A stretch of 64,000 bases of DNA from Mustelus asterias (Eukaryota), in contig NC_135805.1 of the NCBI RefSeq assembly GCF_964213995.1, positions 74,214,001-74,278,000 of the forward strand, written 5' to 3'. Positions 19,419 to 58,808 of the stretch are shown here, in pieces. The position numbers and the translations under genes are program-made. The notes under the pieces were generated by a model that did not search any database, was not told the origin of the DNA, and was given only the letters and a program-made list of their open reading frames with translations. How positions within the stretch are numbered: the first letter of the stretch is position 1; each line of letters opens with the position of its first letter.

Positions 19419-21476
19419 AGTGGAAATCTGCTCTCAAACAGTGCACAGAGACACAAAATCAAGTTACAGAATACTGATTAGAATGCGAATCCCTAAAGCC
19501 AGCCAGGTCTTAAAGGTACAGACAATGTGGGTGGAGGGAGCATTAAACACAGGTTAAAGAGATATGCATTGTCTCCCGACAGAACAGCTAGTGAGATTCT
19601 GCAAGCCCAGGAGGCAAGCTGTGGGGGTTACTGATAATGTGACATGAATCCAACATCCCGGTTTAGGCCGTCCTCATGTGTGTGGAACTTGGCTATCAGT
19701 TTCTGCTCAGCGACTCTGCGCTGTCGTGTGGCGTGAAGGCCGCCTTGGAGAACGCTTACGTGAAGATCCAAGGCTGAATGCCCGTGACTGCTGAAGTGCT
19801 CCCCCACAGGAAGAGAACAGTCTTGCCTGTGATTGTCGACCGGTGTTCATTCATCCGTTGTCGTAGCGTCTGCATGGTTTCCCCAATGTACCATGCCTCG
19901 GGACATCCTTTCCTGCAGCGTATCAGGTAGACAATGTTGGCCGAGTTGCAAGAGTAGGTACCGTGTACCTGGTATATGGTGTTCTCACGTGAGATGATGG
20001 CATCCGTGTCGATGATCCGGCACGTCTTGCAGAGTTGCTGTGGCAGGGTTGTGTGGTGTCGTGGTCACTGTTCTCCTGAAGGCTGCGTAGTTTGCTGCGG
20101 ACAATGGTCTGTTTGAGGTTGCGTGGTTGTTTGAAGGCAAGAAGTGGGGGTGTGGGGATGGCCTTGGGGAAATGTTCGTCTTCATCAATGACATGTTGAA
20201 AGCGATGATATTTTCTTCCTTTGGAGTCATGGTGAGCAATCACTGAAACAACTATATGATGACAGCAACAAGTTCCATCCCACCAACAGACTCACCATGG
20301 ACTACTCTCCAGAATCGGTTGCATTCTTGGACACACGCATCTCTATTAAGGACGGTCACCTCAGCACCTCACTGTACCGCAAGCCCACGGATAACCTCAT
20401 GATGCTCCACTTCTCCAGCTTCCACCCGAAACACGTTAAAGAAGCCATCCCCTACGGACAAGCCCTCCGAATACACAGCATCTGCTCGGATGAGGAGGAT
20501 CGCAACAGACACCTTCAGACGCTGAAAGATACCCTCATAAGAACAGGATATGGCGCTCGACTCATCGATCAACAGTTCCGACGTGCCACAGCAAAAAAAC
20601 CGCACCAACCTCCTCAGAAGACAAACACGGGACACGGTGGACAGAGTACCCTTCGTCGTCCAGTACTTCCCCGGAGCGGAGAAGCTACGGCATCTCCTCC
20701 GGAGCCTTCAACATGTCATTGATGAAGACGATCATCTTGCCAAGGCCACTTCTTGCCTTCAAACAACCACGCAAACTCAAACAGACCATTGTCCGCAGCA
20801 AACTACCCAGCCTTCAGGAGAACAGTGACCACGACACCACACAACCCTGCCACAGCAACCGCTGCAAGACGTGCCGGATCATCGACACGGATGCCATCAT
20901 CTCACGTGAGAACACCATCTACCAGGTACACGGTACCTACTCTTGCAACTCGGCCAACATTATCTACCTGATACGCTGCAGGAAAGGATGTCCTGAGGCA
21001 TGGTACATTGGGGAAACCATGAAGACGCTACGACAACGGATGAATGAACACCGGTCGACAATCACCAGGCAAGACTGTTCTCTTCCTGTGGGGGAGCACT
21101 TCAGTAGTCACGGGCATTCAGCCTTGGATCGTCATGTAAGCGCTCTCCAAGGCGGCCTTCACGACACACGACAGCGCAGAGTCGCTGAGCAGAAACTGAT
21201 AGCCAAGTTCCGCACACATGAGGACAGCCTAAACCGGGATGTTGGATTTATGTCACATTATCAGTAACCCCCACAGCTTGCCTCCTGGGCTTGCAGAATC
21301 TCACTAGCTGTTCTGTCTGGAGACAATACACATCTCTTTAACCTGTGTTTAATGCTCCCTCCACCCACATTGTCTGTACCTTTAAGACCTGGCTAGCTTT
21401 AGGGATTCGCATTCTAATCAGTATTCTGTAACTTGATTTTGTGTCTCTGTGCACTGTTTGAGAGCAGATTTCCACT

Positions 21477-25140: not shown

Positions 25141-25966
25141 GTGAGGAGGGGTTTGAAATTACAGAGTGTGATTGCTGTCACCGGCCTGGAAATGAGTTGG
25201 AGCGAGTGTTTAACCTTTCTGCGTCGTTGCTGATGAGAGAAGAAGCAGAATGTGTGAATGTTTTTTATAAACCGGCGTGTGTCCTTGACTGGATTGGTTA
25301 TTGCTTATTAATTATCAGCTGGATCTATAACAGCTGGAATGACTGGAGTTCAGGAGCAGGGAAATATTAGGGAGAGGAAAGCTGCTGTCATCATGATCAG
25401 CTCCACTAATCCAAACCAGGATAAAACATCATGCCAAAGGGTAAACTGCATTCAACTCCTGTGCATGGAGTGTGGAAGCGGATTTAACATATCTCACCGT
25501 GCGAGTCAACATTCTCAGCAACTACTCTGATAAAGCCACAGTATTGCTTACAACTGCTGGAGAGAAACCTTCAATTAACATTAGAACATTTTACAAATCA
25601 TAAGGCGACATCTCAAAAGTGTTGCTCATGGAGTGAAACATCTCAGTTCGTTACAGAGTAAATGTTGGGCATCAAGTAGAAGGAGGTAAAACACCGTCAG
25701 AGAAAGTTTATAAAAATGATTTTGAAATTGGAGTGGGGATGTAGGGATGGACCAAAAGAATAGATGCCAGTGATGGAGTAGATGGCATCCATTACACGCA
25801 CATTTGCTTTTCAAAGATGCTGCACTTTATGTGAATGCAGTGTTAAATCTCTGCTCAGTAATACACATCCTTACTTAAACCTCCTTCAGCCATGCATCCT
25901 TGCACAAGAGACTTCCTTAGTTCCTTCTTTCTCTACTCCATCATTGGTAGCAGTTCTTTAAAAAAA

Positions 25967-26192
25967 TTTTTTTTAATATACTTTTCCAATTCAATCAAAT
26001 CAAGTCCAATTCAGAGTCTCAACAAGTTGAGACATTTCCGATCCAGGCTGACAAGACACGGCATGCAATCCTCTCTACCCTGTCTTGGGCCTGATCTACA
26101 TGAGCCAAGCTGATTGGAGTCGGCAGACGTCTCCGCCCCCCCCTCCCAGGTTTGATCTCATTTGCATCTTAGCCAAAAGGCCGAGATACCGC
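25967..26192 (-). mobile_element. Putative SINE/retrocopy with U2 snRNA-derived head and A-rich tail
   Basis: 26166-26186 rc = TCTCGGCCTTTTGGCTAAGAT (U2 nt 7-27); T8 at 25967-25974; tttaaaaa on both flanks; internal hairpins. Confidence 0.7.
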
Positions 26193-26588
26193 TTTTAAAA
26201 ATGGCCTCATATGAAACATATGAAGCTTAAATGCAACCCAATGGCTAATACCAGTTCTTCTGCCACAATGCTCAGCACTTTATCTCTCCAATTTAAAAAT
26301 CCTCTTCGTAATCTTTTTCCTTGACTGTGCGTTCACGCCTACCTCCTGCTTATACTCCTACCTGGATTGCAGTACTATGAGCCTTGCATGAAGTGTACGT
26401 GTCAGTGAATGTTGTTTGGAGTTTATGTTTAGTTGTGACTCCTTCGTCCTATCAGCCTATGCTGATGGTCAGTGTGCATCTACGTGAAGAAAGATTATGT
26501 GAATGAGGCGCCTTATGTTTCAATTACAATATAAATGACCCAAGGGTAACTGAATTGAAGCAACCATACTTCAGTTTGTGCCATTACT

Positions 26589-42409: not shown

Positions 42410-43340
42410 TATAAGACTATAAAAAATTGGTCGACATTCCTTACATCACTTCCTTGCCCTTTCCTCGTAACCCTTAATTCCCTCACTGATCAAAAATCAA
42501 TCTATCTCAGCGTTAAATATACACAAGGACTCTGTCCCCACAGCTTTCCATTGCAAGGAGTTCCAAAGATTCTCAAACCTCTGAGAGAAGAAATTCCTCC
42601 TCATCTCAATCTTAAATTTGCACCCTTTATTCTGAGACTATGCCCTCTGGTCCTAGGCTCCCCCGTGAGGAGAAACATCCTCTCAGCATTTACCCTGTCA
42701 AGCCCTTTAAGAATCCTTTGTGTTTAAATGAGATCACCTCTCATTCTTCTAAATTTCAATGAGTCCCAACATTTCCTTATTAAACAATCCCTAAATATCG
42801 GGGATCCATACGAGTGAACCTCTTAATTGCGTCCGATGAAATAATATATTTCCTTAAATAAGGGAACCAAAACTGCTCACAATACTCCAGATGCAGTCTC
42901 ACCAGAACTTTGTACAGCAACACTTTCTTATCCAGATATTCCAACCCCTTTGAAATAAAGGCCTATATTCCATTAGCCTTCCTAATGCACCTGAGTGCTA
43001 GCTTTCTGTGCACATGTACACCCAAGTCCCTTTGTGTGGCAGCTTTCTCCAGTTCTTCTCCATTTAAATCGTATTTTGTTCTCCCTTCCAAAGTGAACAG
43101 TTTCACATTTTCCCATTTGCCAACTTTTTGCACACTTACTTAAGTGATCAATATCCCTTTGTAAACTGTTTATATCCTTCTGGAAACTTGCCTTCCCACC
43201 TATTTTTGTGTTGTCTGCAAATTTGGCTACAGTACGTTCGCTTCCTTCTTCCAAGTTATTAATATACATTGTGAACAGTTGAGTTTCCAGCACAGATCCA
43301 CAGGTCGCCAACTTGAGAAAGAAACCCCACTCGCTGTTTC
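42410..43340 (-). mobile_element. Degraded CR1 LINE fragment
   Basis: QLFTMYINNLEEGSERTVAKFADNTKIGG; cataaga tail. Confidence 0.85.
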
Positions 43341-43540
43341 CTGCCTGTATACACCAGTAATACTTAATGAATAGAATAACACAATTCAATTTGGAAGAAT
43401 CCGAAAAAAAAGCAAGGATGCATTGATAAGAAGATAAAATCTGGGCTAGTTTGCTTTCAGAGGTGGAGAATGAGTCAGCGCCGGAACCAATATTCGGGGA
43501 TGAGGAGGGGGTCGGGATTGTTTTGCTGACGGACGGGAAG

Positions 43541-43618
43541 ATGGCGCTGTCCAGTGGGAATGTGTGTCGGAGATTTTTGTTGCTTTTGGCTCAAGAAAAC
43601 CTGGAGTTCCGGCTCCCG
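43541..43618 (+). CDS. TRMT11: TRMT11 exon 1 (MALSSGNVCRRFLLLLAQENLEFRLP)
   Basis: aagATGg in CpG-rich region; AQExLEFRLP motif; CCG|gtgagt donor. Confidence 0.95.
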
Positions 43619-48911: not shown

Positions 48912-50704
48912 GTTCGTCTTCATCAATGACATGTTGAAGGCTCCGGAGGAGATGCCGTAGCTTCTCCGCTCCGGGGAAGTACTGGACGACGAAGGGTACT
49001 CTGTCCACCGTGTCCCGTGTTTGTCTTCTGAGGAGGTCGGTGCGGTTTTTCGCTGTGGCGTGTCGGAACTGTCGATCGATGAGTCAAGCACCATATACTG
49101 TTCTTATGAGGGCATCTTTCAGCGTCCGGAGGTGTCTGTTGCGATCCTCGTCATCCGAGCAGATCCGGTGTATACGGAGGGCTTGTCCGTAGGGGATGGC
49201 TTCTTTAACGTGTTTAGAGTGGAAACCTGAGAAGTGGAGCATCGTGAGGTTATCCGTGGGCTTGCGGTATAGTGAGGTGCTGAGGTGACCGTCCTTAATG
49301 GAGATGTGTGTGTCCAAGAATGCAACCGATTCCGGAGAGTAGTCCATGGTGAGTCTGTTGGTGGGATGGAACTTGTTGATGTCATCATATGGTTGTTTCA
49401 GTGATTGTTCGCCATAAGTCCAAAGGAAGAAAATGTCATCGATGTATCTAGTGTATAGCCTCGGTTGAAGGTCCTGTGCGGTGAAGAAGTCTTGTTCGAA
49501 CCTGTGCACGAAGAGGTTGGCATATTGAGGTGCGAATTTGGTCCCCATGGCTGTTCCGTGTGTCTGGATGAAGAAATGGTTGTTGAAGGTGAAGACATTG
49601 TGGTCCAGGATGAAGCGGATGAGTTGTAAAATTGCATCTGGAAACTGGCAGTTGTCGGCGTTGAGTACTGAGGCAGTTGCAGAAATGCCATCATCGTGGG
49701 GGATGCTGGTGTAGAGTGCCGAGACATCCATTGTGACGAGGAGTGCTCCTGATTCAACTGCTCCGGAGAAGCTACGGCATCTCCTCCGGAGCCTTCAACA
49801 TGTCATTGATGAAGACGAATATCTCGCCAAGGCCATCCCCACACCCCCACTTCTTGCCTTCAAACAACCGCACAACCTCAAACAGACCATTGTCCGCAGC
49901 AAACTCCCCAGCCTTCAGGAGAACAGTGACCACGACACCACACAACCCTGCCACAGCAACCTCTGCAAGACGTGCCGGATCATCGACACGGATGCCATCA
50001 TCTCACGTGAGAATATCAAGTACCAGGTACACGGTACCAACTCTTGCAACTCGGCCAACGTTGTCTACCTGATACGCTGCAGGAAAGGATGTCCCGAGGC
50101 ATGGTACATTGGGGAGACCATGCAGACGCTACGACAACGGATGAATGAACACCACTCGACAATCACCAGACTGTTCTCTTCCTGTGGGGGAGCACTTCAG
50201 CGGTCACGGGCATTCAGCCTCTGATCTTCTGGTAAGCGTTCTCCAAGGTGGCCTTCACGACACACGACAGCGCAGAGTTGCTGAGCAGAAACTGATAGCC
50301 AAGTTCCGCACACATGAGGACGGCCTAAACCGGGATGTTGGGTTTATGTCACACTATCAGTAACCCCCACAGCTTGCCTGCTGGACTTTCAGAATCTCAC
50401 TGGCTGTCCTGTCTGGAGACAATACACATCTCTTTAACTTGTGCTTAATGCTCCCTCCACTCACATTGTCTGTATCTTTAAGACCTGGTTGGCTGTCGAG
50501 ATTCGCATTCTAATCAGTATTCTGTAACTTGATTTTGTGTCTCTGTGCCCTGTTTGAGAGCAGATTTCCACTCCATCTGACGAAGGAGCAGCGCTCCGAA
50601 AGCTAGTGGTGTTTGCTACCAAATAAACCTGTTGGACTTTAACCTGGTGTTCTTAGACTCCTTACTGTGTTTTCCCCAGTCTAACGCTGGCATTTCCACA
50701 TCAT
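48912..50704 (+). mobile_element. Penelope-like copy F: inverted RT segment (48912-49757, -) joined to GIY-YIG + pLTR (49759-50704, +), inserted in a SINE
   Basis: MDVSALYTSIPH, QTHGTAMGTKFAP, YTRYIDDIF on -; GIY-YIG on +; actgtg on both sides and the SINE resumes at ~50709. Confidence 0.95.
50573..50609 (+). ncRNA. Minimal hammerhead ribozyme motif
   Basis: ccat ctgacga a ggagc agc gctcc gaa agct a gtgg. Confidence 0.8.
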
Positions 50705-56990: not shown

Positions 56991-58808
56991 AACATTAGAA
57001 CATAAGAAATAGGAGCAGGAGTAGGCCATCTAGCCCCTCGAGCCTGCCCCGCCATTCAATAAGATCATGGCTGATCTGAAGTGAATCAGTTCCACTTACC
57101 TGCCTGCTCCCCATAACCCTTAATTCCCTTACCGATCAGAAATCCATCTATCCGTGACTTAAACATATTCAACGAGGTAGCCTCCACCACTTCAGTGGGC
57201 AGAGAATTCCAGAGATTCACCACCCTCTGAGAGAAGAAGTTCCTCCTCAACTCTGTCCTAAACTGACCCCCCTTTATTTTGAGGCTGTGCCCTCTAGTTC
57301 TGGTTTCCTTTCTAAGTGGAAAGAATCTCTCCACTTCTACCCTATCCAGCCCCTTCATTATCTTATATGCCTTTATAAGATCACCCCTCAGCCTTCTAAA
57401 CTCCAACGAGTACAAACCTAATCTGCTCAATCTCTCCTCATAATCTACACCCCTCATCTCTGGTATCAACCTGGTGAACCTTCTCTGCACTCCCTCCAAG
57501 GCCAATATATCCTTTCGCAAGTAAGGGGACCAAAACTGCACACAGTATTCCAGCTGCGGCCTCACCAATGCCTTGTACAGATGCAGCAAGACTTCTCTGC
57601 TTTTATATTCTATCCCCCTCGCGATAAATGCCAACATCCTATTTGCCTTCTTGATCACCTGTTGTACTTGCAGACTGAGTTTTTGCGACTCATGCACAAG
57701 GACCCCCAGGTCCCTTTGCACTTTTAAATCATTTAAATAATAATCCAATTTGCTATTATTTCTTCCAAAGTGAATAACCTCGCATTTGCCAACGTTATAC
57801 TCCATCTGCCAGATCCTCGCCCACTCACTCAGCCTATTCAAATCTCTCTGCAGACCTTCCGCTGCCTCCACGCAATTCACTTTCCCACTTATCTTCGTGT
57901 CATCAGCAAACTTTGTTACCCTACACTCAGTCCCCTCCTCTATGTAAATAGTAAACAGTTGAGGCCCCAGTACCGATCCCTGTGGCACGCCACTAGTCAC
58001 CATCTGCCAACCAGAAAAGCACCCATTTATTCCAACTCTCTACTTCCTGTTGGATAGCCAATCCCCAATCCACGCTAACACCCTACCCCCAACTCCGTGT
58101 GCCCCATTCTGCTGCAGCAACCTTTTGTGAGGCACCTTATCGAATGCCTTTTGGAAATCCAAAACCACCACATCTACCGGTTCCCCTCCGTCAACCGCAC
58201 TAGTCACATTTTCATAAAAATCCAGTAAGTTCATCAAACGCAACTTTCCTCTCATGAATCCATGCTGCGTCTGCTTGATCGAACCATTCTTATCCAGATG
58301 GCCTGCTATTTCTTCTTTTAATGATGGATTCCAGCATTTTCTCAACTACAGACGTTAAGCTAACCGGCCTGTAGTTACCGGCCTGTAGTTACCCACCTTT
58401 TGTCTACTTTCTTTTTTAAACAGTGGCGTAACAGTAGCCGTTTTCCAATCAGCTGGCACTACCCCAGAGTCCAGTGAATTTTGATAAATAACCACTAACG
58501 CATCTGCTATTACCTCTGATATTTCTTTCAGTACCCTGGGATGCATTCCATCCGGGCCCAGGGACTTGTCCACCTTCAATCCCATTAGGCTACCAAGCAC
58601 TGCCTCTCTAGTAACAATAATTGTATTGAGTACCTCTCCTCCTACCAACATTCAATCGTTAACATTCGGTAAACTATTTGTGTCTTCCACCGTGAAGACC
58701 GACACAAAAAACCTATTTAAAGTCTCAGCCATTTCCTCATTTTCCACAATTAAATCCCCCCTCTCGTCCTCCAAGGGTCCAACATTCACTCTAGCCACTC
58801 TATTCCAA
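56991..58808 (-). mobile_element. Young 5'-truncated CR1 LINE inserted into a type-B SINE (56745-56990, resuming 58809-58840)
   Basis: 305 aa RT C-terminal ORF (GVPQGSVLGP, KFADDTK, RPQLEYCVQFWSP); gtaag on both sides. Confidence 0.93.

Follow-up and report, generated by a model that had tools for sequence, protein, structure and literature searches.

The window (the whole 64,000-nucleotide stretch of Mustelus asterias DNA analyzed here) carries on its minus strand, at positions 25979-26253, a 5'-truncated copy of a retroposon flanked by an 8-bp target site duplication (TSD). The first-pass annotation had described a U2 snRNA-headed, structured and A-tailed element at this place; the feature is real, but it covers just the 3' two-thirds of the element. 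In a BLAST comparison of a full copy (L030) with the window, query positions 55-330 were aligned at 94%, and the window copy begins at element nt 55. Its 5' truncation removed both the head, which consists of U2 nt 1-38, and an inverted target of the retrotransposon Keno. The insertion site of this copy lacks the AG(C/T)A motif preferred elsewhere. Its parts are listed in Table 1, together with other features of the window.

Table 1. Parts of the retroposon copy and other features, in window positions
Feature	Position	Strand	Basis or remark
5' TSD copy, AAGAACTG	26252-26259	-	final 2 nt are microhomology with the element
Linker remnant, element nt ~55-116	26191-26253	-	BLAST and alignment; 3' part of the antisense-U2 arm, small hairpin, T5 run
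Internal U2-like hairpin with U2 nt 7-27 (26166-26186) and extended stem	26162-26190	-	the "head" of the first-pass annotation
Octamer, ATGCAAAT	26160-26167	-	first half in stem, remainder is linker between hairpins
Body hairpin 1, apical part varying by subfamily	26101-26159	-	folding, alignment
Body hairpin 2, loop diagnostic of the copy's subfamily (class S3)	26039-26097	-	
Body hairpin 3, 8-bp inverted repeat, near-invariant across the family	26016-26033	-	alignment
Conserved 3' end	25979-26015	-	final ~10 nt and beginning of tail are similar to the Keno-type LINE's 3' terminus
Tail (TATT, A8, T7, A)	25959-25978	-	
3' TSD copy, AAGAACTG	25951-25958	-	
Open frames, presumably Penelope-like endonuclease and RT	20494-21267; 49084-49794	+; -	by eye
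RT fragments, presumably of CR1/L2-type LINEs	42982-43590; 57086-58039	-; -	by eye

Much of what had been read from the letters of this copy holds. The 21 nt of the internal hairpin match nt 7-27 of this genome's own U2 throughout (21/21), the octamer and AGATCAA (26152-26158) lie where they had been placed, and the long body hairpin and the A8 run (25967-25974) are present. The stretch is structured, with a predicted fold that beats 200/200 shuffles (z -3.78). A perfect 8-bp hairpin had been proposed at body hairpin 3; the inverted repeat exists, although folding gives 7 bp with a 4-nt loop. The boundaries and the head required revision. The U2 7-27 piece, previously taken for the head, is internal, and the true head, absent here, belongs ~80 nt further 5'; the 5' boundary, formerly set at 26201, moves to ~26253. 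The two tttaaaaa flanks that had been pointed out do not form a TSD: the upstream one is a conserved part of the element, and the real TSD is the octanucleotide given in Table 1. Rfam returned no match for the window copy or for the whole window.

Size, anatomy and structure of the family

The element is multi-copy and U2-headed, as had been suspected, and its TSDs and tails vary. An exact 25-nt motif from the 3' end has 4,027 genome matches (control, 0), which is a floor for the copy number; the sequence is not single-copy. A search of the animal's own genome (3.68 Gb) returned 1,935 first-look candidates, and the 40 that were scored are 92-100% identical; the 135,653 first-look U2 candidates are rough and were excluded from the copy-number estimate. 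U2 nt 15-37 have 3,694 exact matches, and all of the first 30 inspected run into the element rather than into U2. Three such matches lie 117 bp apart at C1:82749886-82750142, probably as a short tandem repeat of a U2-headed unit.

When the flanks of 30 copies were compared, similarity extended ~100 nt further 5' than the original boundary. The full unit of ~320 bp (290-350 bp in 88 full copies) comprises U2 nt 1-38, an antisense-U2 linker, a second U2 piece (nt 7-27), a body of three hairpins and an A/T tail. The head (nt 1-37/38) is identical to this genome's U2 genes. The linker, ~80 nt between the head and the second U2 piece, corresponds to U2 nt ~12-42 in antisense and degenerate form and is predicted to pair with the head over ~21 bp; the head bases so covered include those with which U2 pairs to the branch point. 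Among 105 position-chosen copies on contig 1, 74 begin at U2 nt 1-13 (18 of them at nt 1), 10 at U2 nt 14-37 and 21 further inside. The junctions of head and linker are fixed and typical of each subfamily. Bodies occurring without the U2 head would have spoken against a headed unit; headless copies, to judge from their sequence, appear to be 5'-truncated, and in 26 of them the upstream flanks have only pieces of the element or of known repeats in common, with no LINE body.

A full copy folds more stably than expected, on the sense strand (z -9.1) more so than on the opposite one (z -6.1), and nearly all common stem variants are G-U-tolerated on the sense strand. Covariation did not exceed that of shuffles for a structure derived from the same alignment on which it was tested: 2/75 pairs changed on both sides, and 19/500 shuffles reach the score. 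The copies fall into at least five subfamilies; in S1, which the order within arrays makes the oldest, the Keno-like bases at the end are missing. A head change that departs from U2, A35G, is common to 10/88 copies, mostly with one linker type. Dating by divergence failed, as class medians of 0.015-0.033 do not track array order; the closest copies differ by only 1-3%. In addition, loci L196 and L210 contain more diverged linker variants behind a U2 head, which are possibly older than the five classed subfamilies.

The element is not a U2 gene: only nt 1-38 and 7-27 of the 191-nt U2 match, and a full U2 with stems II-IV and the Sm site was not found in it. Nevertheless, the three full copies submitted to Rfam (L026, L058, L104) all pass as U2 (RF00004, 47-50 bits, cut-off 46), and automatic pipelines could therefore annotate thousands of spurious U2 genes in genomes of this kind. 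U2 was the only family to pass in these full copies, and no ribozyme family appeared up to E 5. A word search of sequencing runs retrieved 15 runs from seven organisms and eight studies, each with 0.26-0.43 of the words (five rows at 0.09 were disregarded); from such word matches, a spread of the element to other species is a lead only. The runs listed include no RNA run, which says nothing about expression.

Insertion sites, U2 genes and the partner LINE

TSDs, 5' truncation and A-rich tails fit retroposition. A total of 148 copies were typed, from similarity-chosen loci (L001-L030) and position-chosen loci of contig 1, and a TSD was called for 80 of them and for the other 68 not. Removal of these 68, of 18 inner array members, of eight copies with short TSDs, of four reverse self-insertions and of three head-only duplications leaves 47 independent, diverse target sites with TSDs of 9-25 bp. 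AG[CT], the same bases as those preceding U2 nt 39, stands directly before 12 of the 43 element TSDs that begin with A, against a flank background of 4.0% (p 9e-8). The strong targets are the U2 38/39 position and the element's own inverted site. Three of the 88 full copies (L057, L082, L119) bear 11-16 A-to-G changes each on the sense strand and account for most of the overall A-to-G excess (90 vs 50), and no full copy among the 88 has three or more T-to-C changes. On this pattern, the three copies look like ADAR-edited RNA that was later reverse-transcribed. Several stem variants at the subfamily level are also A/G.

The inverted site lies in the linker, whose opposite strand resembles the U2 target and represents an inverted Keno target. 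Reverse self-insertions yield 27 exact matches (two of which may be one duplicated locus), and 23 use one junction whatever the loop length of the host. More than one copy is present at 17/83 loci. In head-to-tail arrays, adjacent pairs of different classes follow one order in 13 cases and the reverse in none, with four ties, in a comparison whose class order was derived from these same arrays and which omits 21 unclassified copies and pairs >70 bp apart; one distant pair (L013) is opposite in order. All five classified nested cases consist of an S4/S5 guest in an S2/S3 host, which implies that the 5' copy in arrays is the younger. A single-event origin of the tandem arrays is disfavored, since later TSDs include the sequence of the earlier copy (L119) and subfamilies are layered. 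Template jumps may explain the junctions without TSDs (L012, L054, L130).

The true U2 genes form tandem arrays on contig 24. The element enters U2 genes at a precise position: its tail followed by U2 nt 39-52 has six exact matches (control, 0). Several of these have a head that passes uninterrupted into upstream DNA of the U2 gene and show no TSD, and others contain a duplication of U2 39-53. A pattern of promoter, head and linker has four matches, and in only one is the main-array promoter real. In the main array of contig 24, one copy (L142) is preceded by U2 upstream DNA (400 bp) together with nt 1-38; it is internally deleted and cut off by Keno, and a second copy follows behind that Keno. 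A cluster of variant U2 genes on contig 21 (448-bp unit, Rfam 175 bits) has most of its units occupied by Keno and one by the element (L141). The variant nt 39-185 there (L141, L226, L228; C21 28.05-28.08 Mb) are ~87% identical to main U2 and have upstream DNA of their own, and the Keno occupants lie in both orientations.

This variant-U2 upstream DNA also precedes the element at eight dispersed loci (contigs 1, 2, 6, 7, 8, 14 and 23, and a duplicated pair, 118/158), as extensions of 10 nt to the whole spacer on several subfamilies, including the window's loop type, and it precedes Keno at five loci. The variant spacer has only 28 genome matches, and the assembly contains no large array of the variant. 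Very few of the element's thousands of copies turned up within U2 genes. Sites, junctions and extensions alike are direct observations. The copies in U2 genes and the U2-upstream DNA on dispersed copies indicate that source copies of both the element and Keno lay in U2 arrays.

The LINE partner is found in an 8-kb array unit, where it is headed by U2 nt 5-35 and followed on its 3' side by U2 from nt 39 on. It encodes a ZCCHC3-type zinc-knuckle ORF1 and an endonuclease-RT ORF2 with an Exo_endo_phos domain. Published descriptions place U2 nt 39 first in the 3' flank of both Keno and Utopia (PMC4640811; PMC6136364). The partner thus combines an APE-type endonuclease with U2 nt 39 as 3' flank, as Keno does. 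It is called Keno here from its site and domains and not from an RT tree. Its 3' end has 320 exact genome matches, two copies keep open frames of 1,070-1,087 aa, and its database relatives are unnamed amphibian and fish RTs (up to ~45% over nearly full length). One disabled Keno (L043:1510-7158; C24 ~44.8-44.94 Mb), with a tRNA-type SINE in ORF2, a stop and a frameshift, has been amplified within an 8,035-bp U2 tandem unit beside plain arrays of 1,833-bp units. Furthermore, a 1,766-aa protein of Heterodontus francisci (P0111) joins a ZCCHC3-type domain and an ORF2-like piece to cadherin domains; it may stem from a faulty gene model or from exonisation of a Tx1 element.

Element and LINE have in common the U2 38/39 insertion, similar ends, the AG(C/T)A preference elsewhere and adjacency. 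The flank motif AG[CT]|A occurs at 3/9 LINE TSDs, and six of the first 30 LINE ends adjoin an element copy, including one LINE that entered the linker of the element in reverse orientation (L167); by rough estimate, chance would give such adjacency at ~1e-4 per locus. With BLAST at word size 7, only the U2 pieces fall below E 0.2, and the terminal likeness of ~10 nt was judged by eye. A deletion derivative of Keno is ruled out, because only the U2 head and these terminal bases are in common with the LINE; as far as Keno is concerned, the earlier suggestion of a non-autonomous derivative of a U2-targeting element falls with it. Mobilization by L1 or Tx1 had also been suggested; the evidence points away from L1, and a Keno-type Tx1 LINE resident in this genome is the most likely partner.

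Source of the RNA and mode of spread

Taken together, the sequence evidence probably describes a ~320-bp non-autonomous retroposon that depends on U2 genes and on a Keno-type Tx1 LINE, with source copies that use the U2 promoter. The Keno ORF2 protein would reverse-transcribe the element RNA, which it would recognize by its fold and by a 3' end like that of Keno. Insertion at U2 nt 38/39 would then allow the element's head to be joined by homology to the gene's own nt 1-38, and the joined copy, now under the external U2 Pol II promoter, would become a source copy. Its transcripts would begin at U2 +1, and rare read-through from an upstream array unit would give 5' extensions. The RNA would be copied into U2 genes, the inverted site or weak sites; most insertions would fall at weak sites elsewhere and be promoterless dead ends, the window copy presumably included. 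Meanwhile, the linker would fold back over the head and bury the branch-point-pairing bases, and linker DNA, as an inverted Keno target, would draw further insertions. It is from sequence that we infer both transcription from the U2 promoter and use of the Keno enzyme. The state of L142 counts against promoter capture, as the sole copy behind the main-array promoter is the one that is deleted and interrupted. So does the scarcity of the variant spacer; the copies with no TSD called, the window site without AG(C/T)A, the absence of Keno-like terminal bases in S1 and the covariation result weigh against the overall reading as well.

The 5' extensions point to read-through or template switching and not to initiation at +1. 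On one account, the RNA arises by read-through or co-transcription, from upstream U2 units, Keno transcripts or host genes, and is trimmed or stopped at the head, with a minor part for the U2 promoter at the element's own +1. Blocks retrocopied from U2 39-191 through spacer and head into the element, two of them with outer TSDs (L047, L140) and another at L217, agree with it, as does the nesting of element and Keno in the same arrays; however, long extensions are confined to the eight dispersed loci among thousands of copies, and the 5' ends cluster at U2 nt 1-13 (74/105), so that we consider it unlikely. It is very unlikely that the body RNA is headless and gains a U2 head anew with every insertion, through a switch of template to U2 snRNA like that described for SINEU-2 extensions. 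Repeated addition of heads has been described (Kojima 2015; PMC4494074), and extra U2 fragments in front of some copies (L221, L223, L253, L254) are a sign of template switching. Yet these switch-added fragments end variably, at nt 42-53, whereas the end of the head is constant; the fixed, subfamily-typical junctions with the linker, the inherited A35G change and the ~21-bp pairing of linker with head likewise speak for a head that is part of the unit.

The element might also bring a promoter of its own, either internal Pol III or an snRNA-type one, made up of octamer, GC box and a PSE-like stretch in the 3' half, that would drive the next copy of a head-to-tail array. The A box and B box are the motifs used in testing for Pol III. 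Neither an A box nor a strict B box was present in 88 copies, and T4 runs occur in 88/88 and T5 runs in 85/88, which makes internal Pol III transcription unlikely on sequence grounds. The same T4 runs and missing boxes, with no 7SL, tRNA or 5S match in Rfam, excluded a classical SINE1/2/3. For the snRNA-type variant one could cite the octamer, conserved in 79/88 full copies, the loci with several copies and 10 nt that match positions -63..-54 of the main U2 promoter (E 4.6). This match, however, is at chance level and sits in a stem, and the GC box is found in one subfamily only. The octamer itself had been noted as that of snRNA distal promoter elements; neither of the two U2 loci scanned in the main array has it, and the window contains it 12 times against 6.2 expected, and hence it is no sign of a promoter. 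An own promoter of either type is quite improbable overall. As for the enzyme, L1 or another Tx1 family could in principle have mobilized the element, its overlap with Keno reflecting shared open chromatin: TSDs of 9-25 bp and A-rich tails would suit L1 as well, and the 3' sequence in common with Keno amounts to only ~10 nt. Exact use of U2 38/39, an inverted U2-like site that Keno itself has hit (L167), the same flank motif and the adjacency at 6/30 LINE ends make this very improbable.

The preferred reading, a retroposon dependent on U2 genes and Keno, can be extended to that of a U2-gene parasite from end to end, a doubtful proposition when taken as a whole. Under this extension, chimeric U2(1-38)-element-U2(39-191) snRNAs, their Sm site and 3' box kept, might ride snRNP export and re-import. 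The antisense linker could hide the branch-point-pairing bases so that the RNA spares splicing, scattered copies with the inverted Keno target could act as a decoy sink that shields the U2 genes, and each re-entry into the U2 array could found a new subfamily; all of these belong to the same tentative whole.

Relationship to known systems and implications

SINEU-1, -2 and -3 with Tx1-Mar have been found only in crocodilians, where they target a Mariner transposon (Kojima 2015; PMC4494074). The present element is SINEU-like in its size (<500 bp), U2-derived head, repeated U2 pieces, A tail and internal oligo-T, as well as in its probable partner, an snRNA-headed LINE of Tx1 type, in tandem copies with a TSD enclosed between them and in a copy number of thousands. 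It is a non-coding, transposing unit; target site, motif and adjacency are in common with a LINE whose clade is named from site and domains. Unlike SINEU, it targets the U2 gene, its head ends at the Keno cut site and its source copies lie in U2 arrays; it also possesses an antisense-U2 linker and an inverted self-target, and its closest copies are only 1-3% apart. The crocodilian preference for Mariner-N4_AMi has no counterpart among the 47 diverse sites.

With Keno, the element shares U2 nt 39 as 3' flank, a U2 5' piece in front and similar last ~10 nt. Unlike Keno, it has no ORFs and no shared body, and is thus a passenger. Utopia uses the same U2 site, and relaxed specificity to U2-like sequences has been reported for crocodilian Utopia (PMC4640811); however, Utopia is autonomous with a restriction-like endonuclease, while the LINE here has Exo_endo_phos. 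As in truncated U2 retropseudogenes and U2-L1 chimeras, a 5' U2 fragment stands between TSDs (PMC4494074). Unlike in either of these, the junction and the 280-nt body are fixed and inherited by subfamily, and no LINE body follows the head.

A further parallel is R2 in 28S rDNA, which likewise combines site specificity, the external promoter of the target gene and 5' homology for precise junctions. R2-dependent short elements occur as passengers in 28S rDNA. The differences are that R2 is strictly targeted to a Pol I gene, whereas the present element concerns a Pol II snRNA gene and has few copies in its target. Co-transcription of R2 is cited in PMC4494074.

The literature searched, which took in few subscription journals and no Repbase Reports, contained no shark SINEU and no Keno-dependent one, and no snRNA-headed shark SINE is mentioned in the available passages of PMC5499810 (on chondrichthyan SINEs), PMC5381603 and PMC5786205. 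We describe a SINEU-type element that differs from crocodilian SINEU as set out above, in a family that may already be catalogued in Repbase or Dfam. It appears to be a second origin of snRNA-headed SINEs, outside crocodilians. How such SINEs are transcribed was left open by Kojima, since U1 and U2 have no internal promoter (PMC4494074). The present element suggests a testable answer, in which the head corresponds to the part of U2 that precedes the Keno cut, and targeted insertion supplies the promoter. The family is young enough to be read, and it offers thousands of natural integrations by a site-specific endonuclease of relaxed preference, which would be useful for work on targeted retrotransposon insertion.
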